This document shows positions 19,334 through 48,378 of a stretch of 48,378 bases of DNA, one piece after another. The notes beneath the pieces were generated by a model that was not told the origin of the DNA, made no database searches, and saw only the letters and a program-made list of their open reading frames with translations. The stretch is from the NCBI GenBank assembly GCA_001002405.1, contig LCOA01000012.1:1-48378 (forward strand), given 5' to 3'. Position 1 is the first letter of the stretch; every line of letters starts with the position of its first letter. A program made the translations under genes and the position numbers. The stretch comes from Candidatus Amesbacteria bacterium GW2011_GWA1_47_20 (GTDB taxonomy: Bacteria; Patescibacteriota; Microgenomatia; CAZETR01; Amesbacteraceae).

Positions 19334-19594
19334 TTGACAAACATATACAAGATATATACAATTGATGTATATGCAAACGCAGACATTTACAGAATGGACT
19401 TGGTGGCCGTGGATGAATATAGAAATCGGAGTGAGCTTATTCGGGAGGCGGTGAGGGTGTATTTGGACAGGGTTGAAAAGTGGAGGAGGATTTTTAAGGC
19501 AGGAAAAAGGGTAGCTAAAAAGATGGGAATTAAGAGCGAGGAGGATGTAAATAGGATTGTGCTAGAGTATAGGCATGGCGGGAAAAAGAATTAG
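19334..19594 (+). CDS. ribbon-helix-helix (CopG-like) antitoxin
   Basis: NRSELIREAVRVYL, and its position upstream of the PIN gene. The start is TTG or later. Confidence 0.7.
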   Translation: MTNIYKIYTIDVYANADIYRMDLVAVDEYRNRSELIREAVRVYLDRVEKWRRIFKAGKRVAKKMGIKSEEDVNRIVLEYRHGGKKN

Positions 19595-22852: not shown

Positions 22853-22924
22853 GGGCCTGTAGCTCAATGGTAGAGCGGCTGTCTTATACACAGTATGTTG
22901 GAGGTCCGAATCCTCCCGGGCCCA
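22853..22924 (+). tRNA. tRNA-Ile with anticodon UAU
   Basis: Cloverleaf: GGGCCTG/CGGGCCC acceptor, GCTC/GAGC D stem, GCTGT/ACAGT anticodon stem, loop CTTATAC, GGAGG/CCTCC T stem. CCA is not encoded. Confidence 0.85.
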
Positions 22925-22932
22925 CAGCGGAA

Positions 22933-23449: not shown

Positions 23450-24325
23450 TTACAGTTCAACGAGGCGAGTGGTTAAAGGTCCAGAACAGGGTTTAATGAA
23501 GTCGAGGTATTTGGTGGTGGAAGTGAGGCGTTTGTGGCCGACGATTTGGGATAGATATTGGGGATCGCAGCCGGCGGAGAGCTGGTGGGCCATGAAAGTA
23601 TGGCGCAGATCATTGACTTTGGTTCCTTTGACGTCGGCCACTCTAAAAAACCTGTCGATGGCGGTTCTGATGTTTCTGATTAACAAAGGATGGCCAGTTT
23701 TGGTGACGAAAAGATGGGGGTCGGTTACAGAAGGACGAATGGCTAGATAATTGGCAACGGCGGTGGAGACATATTTGTTGAGGGGGACAGTTCGTCCGGC
23801 GTTATTTTCCTGGGGGCGAATGTACACCTCTGTTTTTTTGATGTCTTCAGTATGCAGGTTAGCAAGTTCTGAGATGCGCATACCGGTTTGTAAGAGGAGT
23901 TCGACTACCGCTGACATCCTAATATCTAGGCGGACAGCGTCGCGTAGGGAAGAGTATTCGGCGGGGGTGAGAATGCGGGGGGCAGAAGACTCATATTTAG
24001 GATGGGCTAATTCAGAGGCGGGGTTGGTGGGGGTAAGATTATTTTGATTTAGGAATTTAAAAAATGTTTTGAGGGAATTAATCTTGCGACTGACTGATTT
24101 GGCGGTATAACCATTGCTTGATAACGAGAGAAGATAGTCTTGGAGGTGTTGGGAGACAAGAGTGGTGACTTGGGTAATGCGGCGTTCTGCGAAGTGTTTT
24201 TTGAGCTGAATAAGATCGCTGTTATATGCAATAACAGTAGCAGAAGAGCGCCTTTGGGTTTTGAGATAGGTTACAAACTTCTCTAGGGCGATGTCGAAGC
24301 TAACTGGTGTGGGTAAGGTATTCAT
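23450..24325 (-). CDS. tyrosine recombinase (XerC/XerD-like)
   Basis: RISELANL, HDLRHTF and GHKRLTSTTKYL catalytic blocks. The ORF extends to 24379, but Met at 24325 is preferred. Confidence 0.85.
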   Translation of the reverse strand: MNTLPTPVSFDIALEKFVTYLKTQRRSSATVIAYNSDLIQLKKHFAERRITQVTTLVSQHLQDYLLSLSSNGYTAKSVSRKINSLKTFFKFLNQNNLTPTNPASELAHPKYESSAPRILTPAEYSSLRDAVRLDIRMSAVVELLLQTGMRISELANLHTEDIKKTEVYIRPQENNAGRTVPLNKYVSTAVANYLAIRPSVTDPHLFVTKTGHPLLIRNIRTAIDRFFRVADVKGTKVNDLRHTFMAHQLSAGCDPQYLSQIVGHKRLTSTTKYLDFIKPCSGPLTTRLVEL

Positions 24326-24380: not shown

Positions 24381-24731
24381 ATGAAAGTAAAAAATAAACT
24401 GGTGTATTGGGGAGCAGTGATAGTGCTGGGGGTGTTTACGGTAAGGCTAGGGAGGAATGTGTGGAAGCTGTGGAAAGCGGGGGAGAGAATAAAGCAAGCC
24501 GAGTTAGAAGTCAGGAGTCAGGAGCTAGAAAATCAAGAGCTGCAAAAGAGGTTGGCGGAGGTGCAAAGTCCGGAATTTATAGAAAAAGAGGCGAGAGAGA
24601 AGTTGGGACTCGGGAAGGAGGGAGAAACGATCGTTGTCATGCCTGACAACGCAGATCTCAAATCTCAAATCTCAAATCTCAATGGCGAGCCTAACTGGCG
24701 GAAGTGGTGGAAGGTGTATGTAAGTGATTAG
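24381..24731 (+). CDS. septum formation initiator (FtsB/DivIC family)
   Basis: TM segment, coiled coil, and SPEFIEKEAREKLGL. Confidence 0.75.
   Translation: MKVKNKLVYWGAVIVLGVFTVRLGRNVWKLWKAGERIKQAELEVRSQELENQELQKRLAEVQSPEFIEKEAREKLGLGKEGETIVVMPDNADLKSQISNLNGEPNWRKWWKVYVSD
24655..24682. repeat. heptamer tandem array (ATCTCAA x4) in the FtsB-like 3' coding region
   Basis: Encodes DLKSQISNLN. Confidence 0.85.
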
Positions 24732-24803
24732 TGGCTGGGGAGAGATTCGGACTCTCAACCGTGGTCTTATGAAGGCCCTGCTCCGCCATTGAGCTACCCA
24801 GCC
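24732..24803 (-). tRNA. tRNA with anticodon CAU (Met or Ile2) and a weak anticodon stem
   Basis: GGCTGGG/CCCAGCC acceptor, GCTC/GAGC D stem, loop TTCATAA, GAGAG/CTCTC T stem. The anticodon stem GGGCC/GACCA has two mismatches. Confidence 0.65.
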
Positions 24804-25988: not shown

Positions 25989-26014
25989 AAAAAACCCGTC
26001 TAGCGACGGGTTTT
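25989..26014 (-). terminator. bidirectional hairpin terminator downstream of the split tRNA
   Basis: AAAAACCCGTC TAGC GACGGGTTTT. Confidence 0.6.
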
Positions 26015-26074
26015 AATGGATTTTGTACTTCGACTCACTACGTTCGCTCAGTACTGCGTCGCTTACGCTCCTTG

Positions 26075-26265
26075 TTGCGGGGCCGGGAATCGCACCCGGT
26101 CTGGAAGATTATGCTTGATCTGTAATCTCAAATTACTTTGAGTGTCGGACTATATCATTACCCCGAAGGGGGGGTGTCCACCGATATAGCCAAATTTGCT
26201 ACTCCGAATTACTTCGGAGAGGGCCCATACTACTAGCCTTCCGTGCGGCTTTACACTACCCCGCA
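26075..26265 (-). tRNA. tRNA(CAU) gene interrupted in the anticodon loop by a 121-nt insertion
   Basis: Exons give GCGGGGT/GCCCCGC acceptor, GTGT/GCAC D stem, GAAGG/TCTTC anticodon stem, loop CT^CATAA and CCGGG/CCCGG T stem once 26114-26234 is removed. Confidence 0.65.
26114..26234 (-). mobile_element. 121-nt structured insertion (mini group-I-like intron candidate)
   Basis: The 5' exon ends in U and can pair GGCU with the intron's GGCC. The insertion ends in G. Hairpins: CUCCGAA-GUAA-UUCGGAG, CCCC-UUCG-GGGG and CUCAAA-GUAA-UUUGAG. It also carries AUGAUAUAGUCC. Confidence 0.45.
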
Positions 26266-26288: not shown

Positions 26289-26297
26289 ATTATATCA
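26289..26297 (-). promoter_or_regulatory. extended -10 element (TGATATAAT) upstream of the split tRNA
   Basis: The reverse complement of ATTATATCA. It lies about 24 nt upstream of the tRNA 5' end. Confidence 0.5.
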
Positions 26298-26323
26298 CTT
26301 AATTGAGGCTGATTTAAACCAGT

Positions 26324-30380: not shown

Positions 30381-32267
30381 ATGAAGAAGGAGCCTGATAA
30401 GACAACTAAGACAAATGGGACAAATAGGACGAATGGAAAGAGGCCAGTGCGGGGGGTAATGATTCAGATGCAGTTTGATTTACAAAGACTGGCGTGGTGG
30501 GCGGTGGTGGGATTGATGATTTTTTCCTTGGCCGGATTGTGGATGTCCGGATCCAAAGTACAAAAAGAGGTGCAACTGTCACAAGCCTTGGAAGACATGA
30601 GAGCCGGGAAAATAGAGAAAGTGGAGGTATATGCCGACCGGTTGGCGCTGTTTTACACAGACAAAGAAGACGAACCCATGTTTTCTAGAAAAGAAGGGAA
30701 CGTCAGCTTTACGGAGATTTTGGATCGGGCGCAAATTAAACCGGACACAGTGAAATACGAAATTAAGGATCAGACGTTTGGACAAGTAATGACGGCGGTG
30801 TTGCCGTCGGTGATTGGGACGGGATTTGTGCTCTTAGTTCTGCTGTACATGATGCGTCAGGCGAGAGGTCAGCAAGACAGCATATTTTCTTTTGGCCAGA
30901 GCCGGGCCAGATTGTTTGACAAAGGCAAACAGTCGGTGAAATTTTCGGATGTGGCCGGAGTGGATGAGGCCAAAAAAGAGCTGGAAGAAGTAGTGGACTT
31001 TTTGAAAAACCCGGGGAAGTATAAAGCCCTGGGGGCCAGAACTCCCAAAGGGGCTTTACTGATTGGTCCATCGGGCGTGGGAAAAACACTTTTGGCCCGG
31101 GCGATTGCGGGGGAGGCAGGGGTGCCGTTTTACAGTATGGCCGGATCTGAATTTATGGAAATGCTGGTGGGGGTGGGGAGTGCCCGGGTGAGGGATTTGT
31201 TTGCCACAGCCAAGAAAAACGCTCCATCCATAATTTTCATCGATGAGGTGGATGCCATTGGCCGGCAGAGAGGACACGGGTTGATGGGGGGACATGATGA
31301 GAGAGAGCAAACGTTAAATCAGATACTGGTGGAGATGGACGGGTTTACGGCAAATGAAAACGTGGTAGTGCTGGCAGCCACGAATCGCCCGGAACTATTG
31401 GACCCGGCATTGGTGCGGCCGGGACGGTTTGACCGGAGAGTAATGGTGGATATGCCGGACATTGAAGGGCGGAAAGCGATTTTGGCTATTTATGCAAAGA
31501 ATAAGCCATTTGTAAAGTCGGTGAAGTGGGAAGCGGTGGCTAAGCGGACGGTGGGGTTCTCTGGAGCGGATTTGGAAAATATGCTGAATGAAGCGGCGAT
31601 TGGGGCGGCCAGAGAAAGCCTAAAAGAGATTACGATGGAGAACATCGAAGAGGCAGCCACAAAAGTAAAACTGGGGCCGCAGAAAAAACGCTTGCAGAGT
31701 GAGGATGATCGGAAAATGACGGCGTATCATGAGGCGGGTCACGCGGTGGTGAATTGGGCGCAGAAAGGATTGGATCCCGTGCATAGAATTTCCATTGTAT
31801 CCCGGGGGATGAGCCTGGGTCACACTCTAGTTCCACCCGCAGCTGACCGGGTACATGAAACTAAGTCCCGATTGCTGTCTCAAATTGCCATGATGCTGGG
31901 CGGGCGGGCGGCGGAAGAGCTGGTTTTCCATGAGTTTACGACGGGAGCCAGCAATGATATCGATAAGGCCTCGAGTGTAGCTCGGGATATGGTAATGGAA
32001 TATGGCATGAGTAATTTGGGGCCGATTAATTATGGTTCGGAGCCGGATGTGATTGATTGGGGTCGGGGATATATGGAGCCGACGCAAATTTCGCCTGACG
32101 TACAGGCTAAAATTGACGCAGAGGTGAAAAAAATTATTGACGAGGGCTACAAGAAAGCCCAGATAATTCTGAAAAAGCACAGAAAGAAAATGGACAAAGT
32201 GGTAGAGAGGCTGATGAAAGTAGAGACCATGGATGGCGACGAATTCGCTAAAATGATGGCGAATTGA
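30381..32267 (+). CDS. ftsH: ATP-dependent zinc metalloprotease FtsH
   Basis: GPSGVGKTLLARA, IIFIDEVDA, the SRH region and HEAGHAV. Confidence 0.95.
   Translation: MKKEPDKTTKTNGTNRTNGKRPVRGVMIQMQFDLQRLAWWAVVGLMIFSLAGLWMSGSKVQKEVQLSQALEDMRAGKIEKVEVYADRLALFYTDKEDEPMFSRKEGNVSFTEILDRAQIKPDTVKYEIKDQTFGQVMTAVLPSVIGTGFVLLVLLYMMRQARGQQDSIFSFGQSRARLFDKGKQSVKFSDVAGVDEAKKELEEVVDFLKNPGKYKALGARTPKGALLIGPSGVGKTLLARAIAGEAGVPFYSMAGSEFMEMLVGVGSARVRDLFATAKKNAPSIIFIDEVDAIGRQRGHGLMGGHDEREQTLNQILVEMDGFTANENVVVLAATNRPELLDPALVRPGRFDRRVMVDMPDIEGRKAILAIYAKNKPFVKSVKWEAVAKRTVGFSGADLENMLNEAAIGAARESLKEITMENIEEAATKVKLGPQKKRLQSEDDRKMTAYHEAGHAVVNWAQKGLDPVHRISIVSRGMSLGHTLVPPAADRVHETKSRLLSQIAMMLGGRAAEELVFHEFTTGASNDIDKASSVARDMVMEYGMSNLGPINYGSEPDVIDWGRGYMEPTQISPDVQAKIDAEVKKIIDEGYKKAQIILKKHRKKMDKVVERLMKVETMDGDEFAKMMAN
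30402..30437. repeat. 9-nt array (ACAAATAGG-like x4) in the ftsH 5' coding region
   Basis: Encodes TTKTNGTNRTNG. Confidence 0.75.
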
Positions 32268-32685: not shown

Positions 32686-33628
32686 ATCAAGTGCTAATCA
32701 GGAAAAAAATCTTGTGCTCATCCTCGATGGAAATTCGGTTTTGCACCGGGCGTATTATGCGCTGCCGGATTGGAGAAATAGATCCGGTGAGGCAACGGCG
32801 GGGGTGTATGGGTTTTTGAGCATGATGCTCAAAGCCTTGGAAGAGTTGAAACCCACGCATTTGGCTGTAGTGTTTGATCATCCGTCGCCTACTTTTAGAC
32901 ATACGATGTATGTGGGGTATCAGACCAATCGGGAAAAAGAAAGGCAAGTATCGGAAGATATTTGGGGACAGATTGAGAAGTTGAAGGTTGTGTTGGAGAA
33001 GATGGGAATCCTGGTATATCAGGTGGCAGGATTTGAAGCCGACGATGTGATCGGAACGATCAGTGCTCAGATAAAAGATAAAAGTGCTCAGGTAATTATT
33101 ATTACTGGAGATCGGGATTTGATGCAATTAGTGGATAAGAGAATTAAACTATATATGCCCATTAAAGGATTGTCTGATACTGTAATTGTGGATGAAGACA
33201 AGGTAATGGAGAGAATGGGGGTACACCCGAAACAAATAATTGATTACAAAGCGCTGGTGGGGGACAGTAGTGATAATTATCCCGGGGTAGCTGGGATTGG
33301 ACCTAAAACTGCAACTGCCTTGTTAGCAGAATATGGGACATTTGAAAAAATATATGAATTTATAAAAATCTCACCCCGGACCCCTCTCCTTAATTCAGGA
33401 GAGGGGGTGATGAAGAAACTTATTGATGGGTATGAAGGAGGAGAACTTTCGAAAAGATTGGCGACGATCAGGACTGACGCGCCAGTGAGTTATGACAGCG
33501 CGCAGTGCACAGCCCCCAGCCCGCAAAAGTTGACCGAAGTATTACAGGAATTGGGGTATAAAAGTTTAATTAAAAGAATGGGGGGAAAAGCTGATGAGAG
33601 TAGCTCTCGTCCACGATTATTTGAATGA
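32678..33628 (+). CDS. 5'-3' exonuclease (Pol I N-terminal / FEN-like)
   Basis: LILDGNSVLHRAYYAL, GFEADDVIGT and SDNYPGVAGIGPKTA. Confidence 0.9.
   Translation: MVKSSANQEKNLVLILDGNSVLHRAYYALPDWRNRSGEATAGVYGFLSMMLKALEELKPTHLAVVFDHPSPTFRHTMYVGYQTNREKERQVSEDIWGQIEKLKVVLEKMGILVYQVAGFEADDVIGTISAQIKDKSAQVIIITGDRDLMQLVDKRIKLYMPIKGLSDTVIVDEDKVMERMGVHPKQIIDYKALVGDSSDNYPGVAGIGPKTATALLAEYGTFEKIYEFIKISPRTPLLNSGEGVMKKLIDGYEGGELSKRLATIRTDAPVSYDSAQCTAPSPQKLTEVLQELGYKSLIKRMGGKADESSSRPRLFE
33371..33410. repeat. palindromic in-frame insert (TCACCCC..CCCCTCTCC-loop-GGAGAGGGG), copy 1
   Basis: Encodes SPRTPLLNSGEGV within the exonuclease. Confidence 0.75.
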
Positions 33629-34605
33629 GTACGGAGGGGCAGAAAGAGTGTTGGAAGCTCTGGCTGAAATGTGGCCGGAAGCGCCGATTTACACCGCATT
33701 TGCCGTGCCGAATTCTTCGGCAGTAAAAGCGTTTGGGGGCAAAAAAATTATCACTTCTTGGTTTCAAAACATTCCGCTTTACAATAAACTGTATAGCCCG
33801 CTGAGGTTTTTTATCCCATGGATTTGGGAAAGCTTTAATTTATCTGAATATGATTTGGTAATTACATCAGCCAGTTGGTACATAACTAAGGGTTTGGGTA
33901 AAAAAGAAATTTGCTATTGCCATACGCCACCTCGATGGTTGTATGGATATGAAACTTCAATTGCTTGGAAAAAATACTGGCCAGTGAGAATATATGCGAC
34001 TATTGTAGGCCATTTCTTACGCATGTATGATTTTTCCCAAGCCCAAAAAGTGGGGGTGTTTGTAGCTAATTCAAAAAATGTGATATCCACCGGTGGAGAT
34101 GCCAAGAGTGACTGCCAAGAAAGAAGGTTATTATTTGATAGTAAGCAGGCTAGTTGGGGGAAAGGGGATTGAGATGGCTATAGTCGCGGCGAAGAAATAC
34201 GGGTTTAAATTGAAGATTGCCGGAGAGTTTGCGGGATGGAAAAAAATAAAGGAGGTAGAAACTTTGGGGAGAGTAACTGAAGAAGAGAAAGCAAAATTGA
34301 TGACCGAAGCCAAAGGATTTTTGGTGTTGGAGAGGGATGTTGATTTTGGAATTACTCCTGTGGAGGCGCAGATGTGCGGAACTCCAGTGATTGCTTTTAA
34401 TGGGGGAGGATATAGGGAATCTGTAATTGATGGCAAAACCGGAGTGTTGTTTGATGACTACTCTGTAGAGGGGTTGGGAGAGGCGATAAAAAGGTTTGAA
34501 AATTTGAAATTTGATGCTCGAAATTTGAAAAGACATGCCCAAAAGTTTTCCAAAAAAGTTTTTCAAGATAAAATGAAAAAACTATGCCAGAGCTACCTGA
34601 AATAG
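33594..34605 (+). pseudogene. GT4-family glycosyltransferase split by an internal deletion and frameshift
   Basis: ORFs 33594..34172 and 34093..34605. ...FVANSKNV joins directly to (I)YPPVEMPRV in another frame. The family-typical ~14-aa segment between them is missing. Confidence 0.65.
34495..34529. repeat. heptamer array (ATTTGAA-like x5, one degenerate unit) in the GT4 3' coding region
   Basis: Encodes FENLKFDARNLK. Confidence 0.7.
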
Positions 34606-35381: not shown

Positions 35382-36367
35382 CAAAAATCCATTTACAGAA
35401 CTTTAGAAGTTATGAGAAGAGGAGTTTCTCGTTTGGGGAGAAAACGGTAATTGTGGGGGAGAATGGGAGCGGGAAGAGTAATTTGATGGAAGCCGTGTAT
35501 ATGTTGGCGACGGGAAAAAGTTTTAGGGCTGACCGCGAGGATGAAATGCTTAAGTATGGAGAAGGCTTTTTTCGGGTAATAGGACAAATACGACAGATGG
35601 GACAAATAGGACAAATGGAAATAACGATGGCTGATGCTAGAAAGAGATTTTTGATAAACGGAGTGCCGAGGAGACAGATTGATTTTGTGGGAAAAATGCG
35701 GGCGGTGCTGTTTTGCCCGCAGGATATGGAATTGGTAACGGGAAGCCCCGGTGGGCGAAGGAGGTATTTAGACTTCGTAATTTCCCAAATGGACAGGGAA
35801 TATAGGAGGTGTCTGATTTCTTACGAGAAAGGCTTGCGACAGAGAAACAAATTACTAGAAATGATTAGAGAAGGACTGGCGCAAAGAAGCCAATTGTTTT
35901 TTTGGGATAAGCTGCTGATTAAAAACGGGGAATATATTACCCTGAAGAGAGGAGAGTATTTAGAGGGGTTGGCCGAATATGACAAAAGTGTAATTAGTGA
36001 GGCGAGGTTAAAACAATATGAAGTGGAAGAGGTGGCGGCGGCGGCAACACTAGTAGGACCACACAGGGACGACTTTGTCGTCAATATAGACGGGCGGGAT
36101 GTGAGTAAATATGGGAGCAGGGGAGAGCAGAGAATGGCGGTTTTAGGACTAAAAGAAAAAGAGATAGAGTATTTGTTCTTCGACTCCGCTCAGGATTCGC
36201 AACAACCATTGTTGTTGCTCGATGATATCCTTTCGGAGTTGGATCACAAACACAGGGATGAAGTACAAAAAATGGTGAAGGATTACCCTGGGCAAGTGAT
36301 TATGACGACTGTTGACGATTTGCTGCCTCCTGGGGTTGGGGAGCTGGACGTGATTCGATTGGTGTAA
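35369..36367 (+). CDS. recF: DNA replication and repair protein RecF
   Basis: LQNFRSY and GENGSGKSNLMEA Walker A, plus the C-terminal LLLLDDILSELD. Confidence 0.85.
   Translation: MSGLTKIHLQNFRSYEKRSFSFGEKTVIVGENGSGKSNLMEAVYMLATGKSFRADREDEMLKYGEGFFRVIGQIRQMGQIGQMEITMADARKRFLINGVPRRQIDFVGKMRAVLFCPQDMELVTGSPGGRRRYLDFVISQMDREYRRCLISYEKGLRQRNKLLEMIREGLAQRSQLFFWDKLLIKNGEYITLKRGEYLEGLAEYDKSVISEARLKQYEVEEVAAAATLVGPHRDDFVVNIDGRDVSKYGSRGEQRMAVLGLKEKEIEYLFFDSAQDSQQPLLLLDDILSELDHKHRDEVQKMVKDYPGQVIMTTVDDLLPPGVGELDVIRLV
35577..35625. repeat. 9-nt array (AAATAGGAC-like x5) inside recF
   Basis: Encodes IGQIRQMGQIGQME. Confidence 0.8.
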
Positions 36368-47314: not shown

Positions 47315-47569
47315 TAGGCATGCAAGTAAAACGGGTCCCGCAAGGGACAAGTTGCAGACGGGTGAGTAATACATAGGAATCTACCTTTTAGTGGGGAATA
47401 GCTGGCCGAAAGGCCAATTAATACCGCATAAGATCGCAAGATGAAAGGGCGTAACTGCCCGCTGAAAGATGAGCCTATGTCCTATCAGCTAGTTGGTGGG
47501 GTAAAAGCCTACCAAGGCGATGACGGGTAGCTGGACTGAGAGGTCGGTCAGCCACAATGTTACTGAGAT

Positions 47570-48273
47570 CGAAATGTAGGTCTCCCGTACTGGTAACGGT
47601 ACGGAAAAACTCAACTAATAACGGTGAAATCCATCAGTACTTGACTTCGTATAAACTTCGGTTTAGCATGGAGTTAATGTACGTTTGGGATAATACCGTG
47701 GGAAGCTCTATCAGAGTAAGCCCAACAGTGCTAGCTTATATTGCAGGATTTCTAGACGGAGATGGATGTATCAAGGTAACGATAGCAAAGCGTGATTACG
47801 CTAAGTTTGGGTATTACTTTCGAGTGATCGTGAGTTTTGCTCAACATATTAGAGATAGACGGGTTTTAGTTTGGATAAAAAGCAAACTAAAAGTAGGGTC
47901 AATTTCTGATTACGATTTACCTGGTAAACAAGTCTCTGAATATGTTATTCAGGATAGGAAGTTCAATTTTAGATTGTTGTTTAATTTACGTCCCTTTGTG
48001 GTCGTTAAAAAAAGACAATTAGAATTGGCTTCAGAAATTCTAAGTTTAAAAGATAAGGTTAAAAACCCTATTTCTTTTAAGCGAGCAATGAAAGCAGCGA
48101 TGGAAATTAGAAGGCTAAATAGCCCTTCTAAATTTGATAGTAGCCCCGTAACGACTCATATGGGAGGTACCAGATAATCTGGAATACAAACTTCCATTAT
48201 ATGTTGACGCCCGGTATGGGTATCGGGATGAAGATATAGTCTGATCCCCCGAGTAATCGGGGTAAACACAATG
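47570..48273 (+). mobile_element. group I-like intron in 16S rRNA (near E. coli position ~330)
   Basis: The exon ends GAGAU and can pair with the intron's GUCUC at 47580-47584. The intron ends in G. It carries AAGATATAGTC and a CCCCGA-GUAA-UCGGGG hairpin near its 3' end. Ligated exons restore ATGTT-ACTGAGATACGG-AACAT. Confidence 0.7.
47668..48177 (+). CDS. LAGLIDADG homing endonuclease (single-motif, I-CreI-like size)
   Basis: LAYIAGFLDGDGCIKV. About 169 aa from ATG 47668, and low GC. Confidence 0.85.
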   Translation: MELMYVWDNTVGSSIRVSPTVLAYIAGFLDGDGCIKVTIAKRDYAKFGYYFRVIVSFAQHIRDRRVLVWIKSKLKVGSISDYDLPGKQVSEYVIQDRKFNFRLLFNLRPFVVVKKRQLELASEILSLKDKVKNPISFKRAMKAAMEIRRLNSPSKFDSSPVTTHMGGTR

Positions 48274-48378
48274 ACGGAACATACGACTACGGTCGGCAGC
48301 AACTAGGAATATTGCGCAATGGACGAAAGTCTGACGCAGCGACGCCGCGTGGAGGATGACGGCCTTCGGGTTGTAAAC

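Follow-up and report, generated by a model that had tools for sequence, protein, structure and literature searches.

The window analysed here, by which we mean the whole stretch of 48,378 nucleotides, carries on its minus strand a tRNA(CAU) gene (26265-26075) that is interrupted between U33 and C34 by 121 nt (26234-26114). The split was first proposed in the initial annotation, and the unsplit orthologues described below fix its junction to the base. The exons, the flanking signals and two nearby tRNA genes are as follows.

26289..26318, minus strand: promoter-like site 5' of tRNA(CAU), with TTTAAA, an 18-nt spacer and a TG-extended TATAAT (10/12 matches, TG present)
26235..26265, minus strand: 5' exon of tRNA(CAU), U1 to U33, 31 nt, with 100% identity to unsplit orthologues; its terminal GGCU is the exon strand of P1
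26075..26113, minus strand: 3' exon of tRNA(CAU), C34 to discriminator A73, 39 nt, CCA unencoded
25991..26014, minus strand: terminator-like hairpin AAAACCCGUCGCUAGACGGGUUUU followed by a T-run, downstream of tRNA(CAU)
24731-24803, minus strand: a second, different tRNA-Met(CAU), near the split tRNA
22853-22925, plus strand: tRNA-Ile(UAU), near the split tRNA

When the exons are joined without 26114-26234, ARAGORN reports a tRNA-Met(CAT) of 71 nt and draws its D stem as 3 bp. The unspliced gene was undetected by ARAGORN with intron mode on or off, and Rfam at gathering thresholds gave no match to it. The ARAGORN call bears out the overall tRNA anatomy proposed earlier, with the exception of the acceptor stem; this had been drawn as GCGGGGT/GCCCCGC by counting one T-stem G twice, and is UGCGGGG/CCCCGCA (U1-A72). 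The extended -10 box and the terminator claimed upstream and downstream are both present as sequence matches, and in an alignment the TATAAT of the promoter is kept in relatives. A protein-spliced bulge-helix-bulge tRNA intron was considered and rejected, the site being 33/34 and not the canonical 37/38, and the insert aligning to a group I model.

Positions 2-7/66-71 of the acceptor (GCGGGG/CCCCGC) together with A73 presumably resemble those of E. coli tRNA-fMet. The pairs 1:72 and 11:24 of the split tRNA are both U-A, and its anticodon stem contains A29-U41, G30-C40 and G31-U39. The trio of split tRNA(CAU), tRNA-Met(CAU) and tRNA-Ile(UAU) recurs in the relatives L006, L014, L016 and L036, which argues that the split tRNA is needed and is not an Ile2 tRNA; with tRNA-Ile(UAU) present in the trio, a UAU anticodon, and not a lysidine tRNA, is probably what reads AUA. 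The T loops of the clustered tRNAs are UCCGAAU or UGCGAUU, not the usual UUCRANY.

The neighbouring genes are bacterial and encode TrpRS, FtsH, an integrase and a TraG-like ATPase, and the relatives of the TrpRS are from Patescibacteria/Microgenomates. The FtsH of the related locus L005 (4329-7556) is 1075 aa long and has an intein in its AAA domain (Intein_splicing and a faint LAGLIDADG_3), and the FtsH of the window (30381-32267) has none. Further along the window, the 16S rRNA gene (start 47266) contains a 707-nt insertion at ∼47569-48275 with a LAGLIDADG ORF at 47557-48177, which is the usual CPR-type rRNA intron. The J8/7-P7-like motif that had been pointed out in this intron is found as GATATAGTC at 48233-48241, and lies within a sub-threshold RF00028 match (48068-48263, 36.7 bits).

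Orthologues and the intron family

Loci anchored on TrpRS contain the tRNA(CAU) gene in both states, unsplit and split. In L001, whose TrpRS is 91% identical, the tRNA is unsplit (...GGAAGGCT|CATAATCTTCC...) with the same exons as in the window, and both exons of L001/L009 and of several other unsplit orthologues are 100% identical to those of the window. The tRNAs of L007 and L008 (TrpRS identity 76%) are also unsplit and have few exon substitutions, and L005 and L006 (TrpRS identity 86%) carry an intron of 225 nt at the same site. Exon identity in orthologues such as L001, which have no intron, places both ends of the insert to the base.

To define the family, the 3' half of the tRNA was scanned against one genome per species (185,579 species genomes), and 21 genomes matched, mostly Ca. 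Amesbacteria where classified. Homologous split and unsplit alleles, which the initial annotation had suggested seeking in related genomes, were both recovered. Taking the species scan and the syntenic loci together, the tRNA is unsplit in about 13 genomes and is split exactly at U33|C34 in 8 others, with introns of 193, 193, 201, 201, 204, 206, 209 and 225 nt. Intron presence is thus patchy (9/∼22 related genomes), and the 121 nt of the window are the only short intron at this tRNA among those genomes.

The intron of L006 scores 54.9 bits against RF00028 (Intron_gpI), above the gathering score of 50 bits. An alignment of nine full-length members supports a canonical P1-P9 structure with a P3/P7 pseudoknot, in which 96.4% of cells are paired; as a control, pairing falls to 32-48% when the partners are slid by 1-3 columns. 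Changes on both sides are seen in 22 of 49 pairs, comprising most of P2, P5, P8 and P9 together with a single pair in P3 (U-A to C-G) and another in P7 (A-U to G-C). P4 and P6 are invariant in the family and so provide no covariation evidence, and the same holds for P1, in which GGCU/GGCC is paired in 9/9 family members and in the window copy with pairs that do not vary. A long-range helix suggested by RNAalifold, joining the P1 region to J6/7-P7, was rejected since it involves invariant columns and the canonical P1/P3/P7 arrangement has covariation in P3 and P7. A description of the L006 difference as a 105-nt insertion into P8 was also discarded, as both Rfam and the family alignment show it to be the core from P5 to the P3 3' strand.

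Different peripheral loops of the intron family contain a motif of 15-16 nt, (C)UGAGCGAAGUCGAAG, whose orientation in P6 of the window's strain (L030 1283-1297) is opposite to that in the P5 loop of L005/L006 (L006 2503-2517). The motif is also present in the tRNA 3' trailer (26023-26055, minus strand), where 8 nt interrupt it. For the 16-nt motif CUGAGCGAAGUCGAAG, the window contains a single near-copy (36178-36193, 1 mismatch). The (C)UGAGCGAAGUCGAAG motif could represent a very small insertion element or else a hairpin module common to these sites.

Contigs of the same strain were picked from ENA, JGI and NCBI by the window's exact TrpRS or its 237-aa neighbour protein. Seven complete entries (L030, L031, L036/L042, L039, L043, L047 and L048) have an intron of 209 nt, and the partial contigs L038, L044 and L045 carry the matching end of it. 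At least 8 samples, assembled by more than one program, are represented among these contigs. In each the intron is the window's 121 nt plus an identical 88-nt block, and the flanks around the gene are 100% identical. The 209-nt allele (L030) scores 68.2 bits against RF00028 and has the same core helices by Rfam alignment.

Inventory of the 121-nt insert

Set against the 209-nt allele and the family alignment, the insert of the window comprises the following parts.

26114..26234, minus strand: group I intron remnant of 121 nt, equal to the 209-nt intron minus 88 nt (RF00028, 34 bits; alignment to the 209-nt allele)
26222..26228, minus strand: internal guide sequence AUG-GGCC, whose GGCC pairs with exon GGCU (P1, with a U-G wobble, 5' splice site)
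26202..26219, minus strand: P2 hairpin CUCCGAA-GUAA-UUCGGAG, 6/7 pairs with compensatory changes across the family
26189..26194, minus strand: P3 5' strand UUUGGC, partner GCCAAA absent in the window
26179..26184, minus strand: P4 5' strand UCGGUG, partner UACCGA absent in the window
26170..26171, minus strand: deletion junction, where same-strain assemblies hold 88 nt, GGCGTAACGCC...CACGCCAAATA
26161..26170, minus strand: P8 mini-hairpin CCC-UUCG-GGG(G), native and also present in the 209-nt allele
26148..26160, minus strand: J8/7 (UAAUGAUA) and P7 3' strand UAGUC, partner GACUA absent in the window; one compensatory change, in L016
26127..26142, minus strand: P9 hairpin CUCAAA-GUAA-UUUGAG, 5/6 pairs with compensatory changes
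26114..26126, minus strand: 3' tail AUUACAGAUCAAG, its last base being omega-G (26114)

The group I origin put forward in the initial annotation is well founded. In a permissive Rfam scan of the 451-nt region the sole meaningful match was to RF00028, which aligns to the insert from end to end (34.0 bits, local E 4.5e-7), matching P1, P2, P8, J8/7 and P9 and skipping the 93-nt P4-P6 block of the model; the intact alleles score 55-68 bits. The RF00028 comparison that had been recommended therefore returns a group I match, though the window copy as written is below the 50-bit gathering score and the intact element of the strain is above it. Many of the individual elements had been recognised correctly: the two GUAA-capped hairpins (P2, 26219-26202; P9, 26142-26127) and the single UUCG-capped one (P8, 26170-26161) were all found, P1 with its U-G wobble is present, and so is the terminal G, which is omega-G in 10/10 introns at a junction that the orthologues fix. 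The stretch likened to J8/7-P7, AUGAUAUAGUCC, is also present and rightly identified, AUGAUAUAGUC of the window being aligned to the RF00028 J8/7-P7 consensus AAGAUAUAGUC. We infer in addition that the AUG of the guide can pair with CAU of the 3' exon as P10.

The family alignment shows equally what is gone. The window retains P1/IGS, P2, the 5' strands of P3 and P4, J3/4, J4/5 and the first four C of P5, and these four C run directly into P8, J8/7, the P7 3' strand UAGUC, P9 and the tail. The 88-nt block comprises P5, the P4 3' strand, P6, J6/7, the P7 5' strand, J7/3 and the P3 3' strand. As a result P3, P4 and P7 are one-stranded in the window copy, P6 and (bar its four C) P5 are absent, and there is no complete group I core. 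The missing P7 5' strand, GACUA, makes up one side of the helix that binds guanosine. Given the established group I mechanism, the 121-nt RNA as written could not be expected to build a catalytic core or to splice.

The minimum-free-energy fold of the 121 nt, in which GGCUAUAUC is paired with GAUAUAGUC, was rejected as functional, as these are two conserved single-copy core segments. In the minus-strand RNA GGCUAUAUC (P3/J3/4, 26183-26191) is complementary to GAUAUAGUC (J8/7-P7, 26148-26156), and both are kept in all family members. Their pairing, the dominant one in that fold, might give the intron a second, inactive conformation.

An exceptionally minimised self-splicing RNA was among the possibilities first raised for this insert. 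The comparison with the long allele speaks against it, in that the 121 nt are the 209-nt intron minus 88 nt in which half of every core helix lies. We regard it as hardly credible that the 121-nt RNA is a functional minimised intron, whether by way of a surrogate P7 (GGAC/GUCC) or of a trans-acting RNA or protein. GGAC is indeed able to pair with GUCC, as a P7 in the picture of the initial annotation would require, but the pairing is coincidental; in the intact intron GGAC is made up of the last part of the P4 5' strand and J4/5, and the P7 partner that has covariation behind it is deleted. The insert does keep P1 with its U-G wobble, the P10 guide, P2, P8, J8/7, the P7 3' strand, P9 and omega-G, and its fold is more stable than that of shuffled sequences (z = -3.1), yet the partners of P3 and P4 are gone and the 88-nt block is nowhere else in the window, where a search for a displaced copy (a split or trans arrangement) gave only chance-level matches. 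There is no second short form at this tRNA in the 185,579 species genomes, and in the 241 million contigs of the JGI metagenome collection the deletion junction was found in 0 contigs and a generic mini-intron pattern, with 4-34 nt between the P4 5' strand and J8/7, had 0 matches. Furthermore, outside the gap the short form matches the long allele at every base, and therefore has had no time for adaptation and has no evolutionary history of its own.

Engineered group I ribozymes without P4-P6 reportedly keep weak activity when the P3-P7-P8 domain is intact (Ikawa, Shiraishi and Inoue 2000). To our knowledge these are the only precedent that makes a very short intron conceivable, and they do not apply here because P3 and P7 are each down to a single strand in the window copy. 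An equally slender chance attaches to a genuine 88-nt deletion allele from which the 121-nt RNA is still excised, for example by a trans-acting RNA or protein; the candidate trans factors would be the group I intron of the 16S gene or a host factor supplying the P3-P7/P4-P6 functions. If true, this would be by far the smallest natural group I-derived intron.

The 88-nt gap

Along 19.6 kb of alignment with L039 the window has no substituted base and lacks three stretches, of 28 nt (at 19389), 88 nt (at 26170) and 44 nt (at 34082). The 44-nt gap (34082|34083) frameshifts a glycosyltransferase, which is one 351-aa gene in L039 and is divided in the window between ORFs at 33594-34172 and 34093-34605. 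The 28-nt gap (19389|19390) is apparently intergenic by ORF coordinates and is common to the window and both GenBank MAG contigs described next; it may be genuine variation, and not every gap is necessarily an artefact.

Two other GenBank contigs are also interrupted within this intron. LCOT01000023.1 (L040) has a 37-nt deletion that leaves 172 nt, and LCMD01000008.1 (L041) a 60-nt deletion that leaves 149 nt. The right edge is identical in these two contigs and in the window, and lies just before CCCTTCGGGG. Both contigs are from the same population and have private gaps of 23-119 nt with 0-5 substitutions. The gaps in the GenBank MAGs include 23 nt in the second tRNA-Met (24758-24780), 36 nt in FtsH (30601), 119 nt in the TraG-like gene (22429) and 44 nt at 24060, and private gaps also fall within the annotated integrase region. 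In the alignment to the 209-nt allele, the 88-nt deletion shows no microhomology. Several contigs end inside the intron (L038, L044, L045 and L046), and this is therefore a hard-to-assemble spot; such ends are expected where co-occurring relatives share a conserved core.

On these sequence comparisons, the tRNA(CAU) of the organism in all likelihood holds an ordinary 209-nt group I intron, and the 121-nt form in the window is most probably a collapsed scaffold gap or a mis-join. We favour an artefact because nested gaps with a fixed edge, a lack of substitutions and broken genes resemble contigs that have been butt-joined after loss of the sequence between them. A biological deletion hotspot might, in principle, also produce three nested deletions that share an edge.

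The 88-nt deletion might also be real in a subpopulation, in which case the core is lost, the precursor would be unspliceable and the tRNA(CAU) gene would be a very recent pseudogene. We consider this unlikely. The given sequence does lack half of P3, P4 and P7, all of P6 and nearly all of P5, and the intact state of exons, promoter and terminator would agree with a very recent event; even so, the tRNA is kept clade-wide beside a different tRNA-Met(CAU) and tRNA-Ile(UAU), and so is probably needed. The occurrence of three different deletion alleles in deposited MAGs could reflect an unstable site, but the window differs from independent assemblies by zero substitutions and yet several gene-breaking gaps, the junction is absent from the JGI metagenome contigs and from 10 other places examined, and the deletion has no microhomology. 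The decayed remnant suggested in the initial annotation comes closest among its three options; the loss itself is traced here to a probable assembly gap.

Relation to known introns

The four classical classes of bacterial tRNA group I introns, Leu.3Ug, Arg.5Ug, fMet.2Ug and Ile2.5Ug, are all IC3, and position 2 in this class nomenclature corresponds to CU/CAUAA (Williams 2020, bioRxiv 10.1101/2020.01.27.920355). The classical cyanobacterial tRNA-fMet intron is fMet.2Ug, of subgroup IC3, and MAGs of unnamed phyla have 0.49 split tRNA genes per genome (Williams 2020, bioRxiv 10.1101/2020.01.27.920355). A paper on the finishing of CPR genomes also notes tRNAs with group I introns (PMC8172020).

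Like fMet.2Ug, the intron described here is inserted between the second and third nucleotides of the anticodon loop of a CAU tRNA, with a U-1 wobble in P1 and a terminal G; it is ∼200 nt long, has no ORF and is patchy among close relatives, the class being set by site, U-1 and omega-G. It differs from fMet.2Ug in that the host tRNA is from Patescibacteria, has U1-A72 and has one G-C among the three initiator-defining anticodon-stem pairs, and in that the window copy is short by 88 nt. The compact P2, P5, P8 and P9 of the family are compatible with subgroup IC3. Judged from these features, we take the intact intron to be a further member of the tRNA anticodon-loop group I introns at the fMet.2Ug site.

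The Azoarcus tRNA-Ile(CAU) intron ('Ile2.5Ug', inserted after U36) is ∼205 nt long and is among the smallest natural self-splicing group I introns. It shares with the family described here (193-225 nt) a compact, ORF-less form, a location in a CAU anticodon loop and short tetraloop-capped P2, P5, P8 and P9. Unlike the Azoarcus intron, which follows U36, the intron here lies after U33, and its J8/7 is of the AUGAUAUAGUC type.

The intact intron may be expected to splice by the usual group I mechanism. In its host, a groundwater Patescibacteria bacterium that is Ca. Amesbacteria-like, the transcript would fold into P1-P10, and the guide AUG-GGCC would bring into line both the anticodon CAU and exon GGCU, whose U-G wobble lies at the 5' splice site. 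An exogenous guanosine bound in P7 would then attack after U33. The terminal G would move into the same site and the exons would be ligated to give a 70-nt tRNA, to which CCA would then be added.

The size of 121 nt, well under the ∼200-nt floor of natural group I introns, calls for caution, as it almost certainly derives from a single assembly with several small gaps that are free of substitutions. It is likely that collapsed gaps also disrupt genes in the deposited MAGs of this population. The tRNA(CAU) gene escapes tRNA finders in both its 121-nt and its 209-nt forms, and the tRNA complements of such genomes are consequently under-counted. The real 209-nt ORF-less intron extends a class already known as common in candidate-phyla MAGs to a Ca. 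Amesbacteria lineage.
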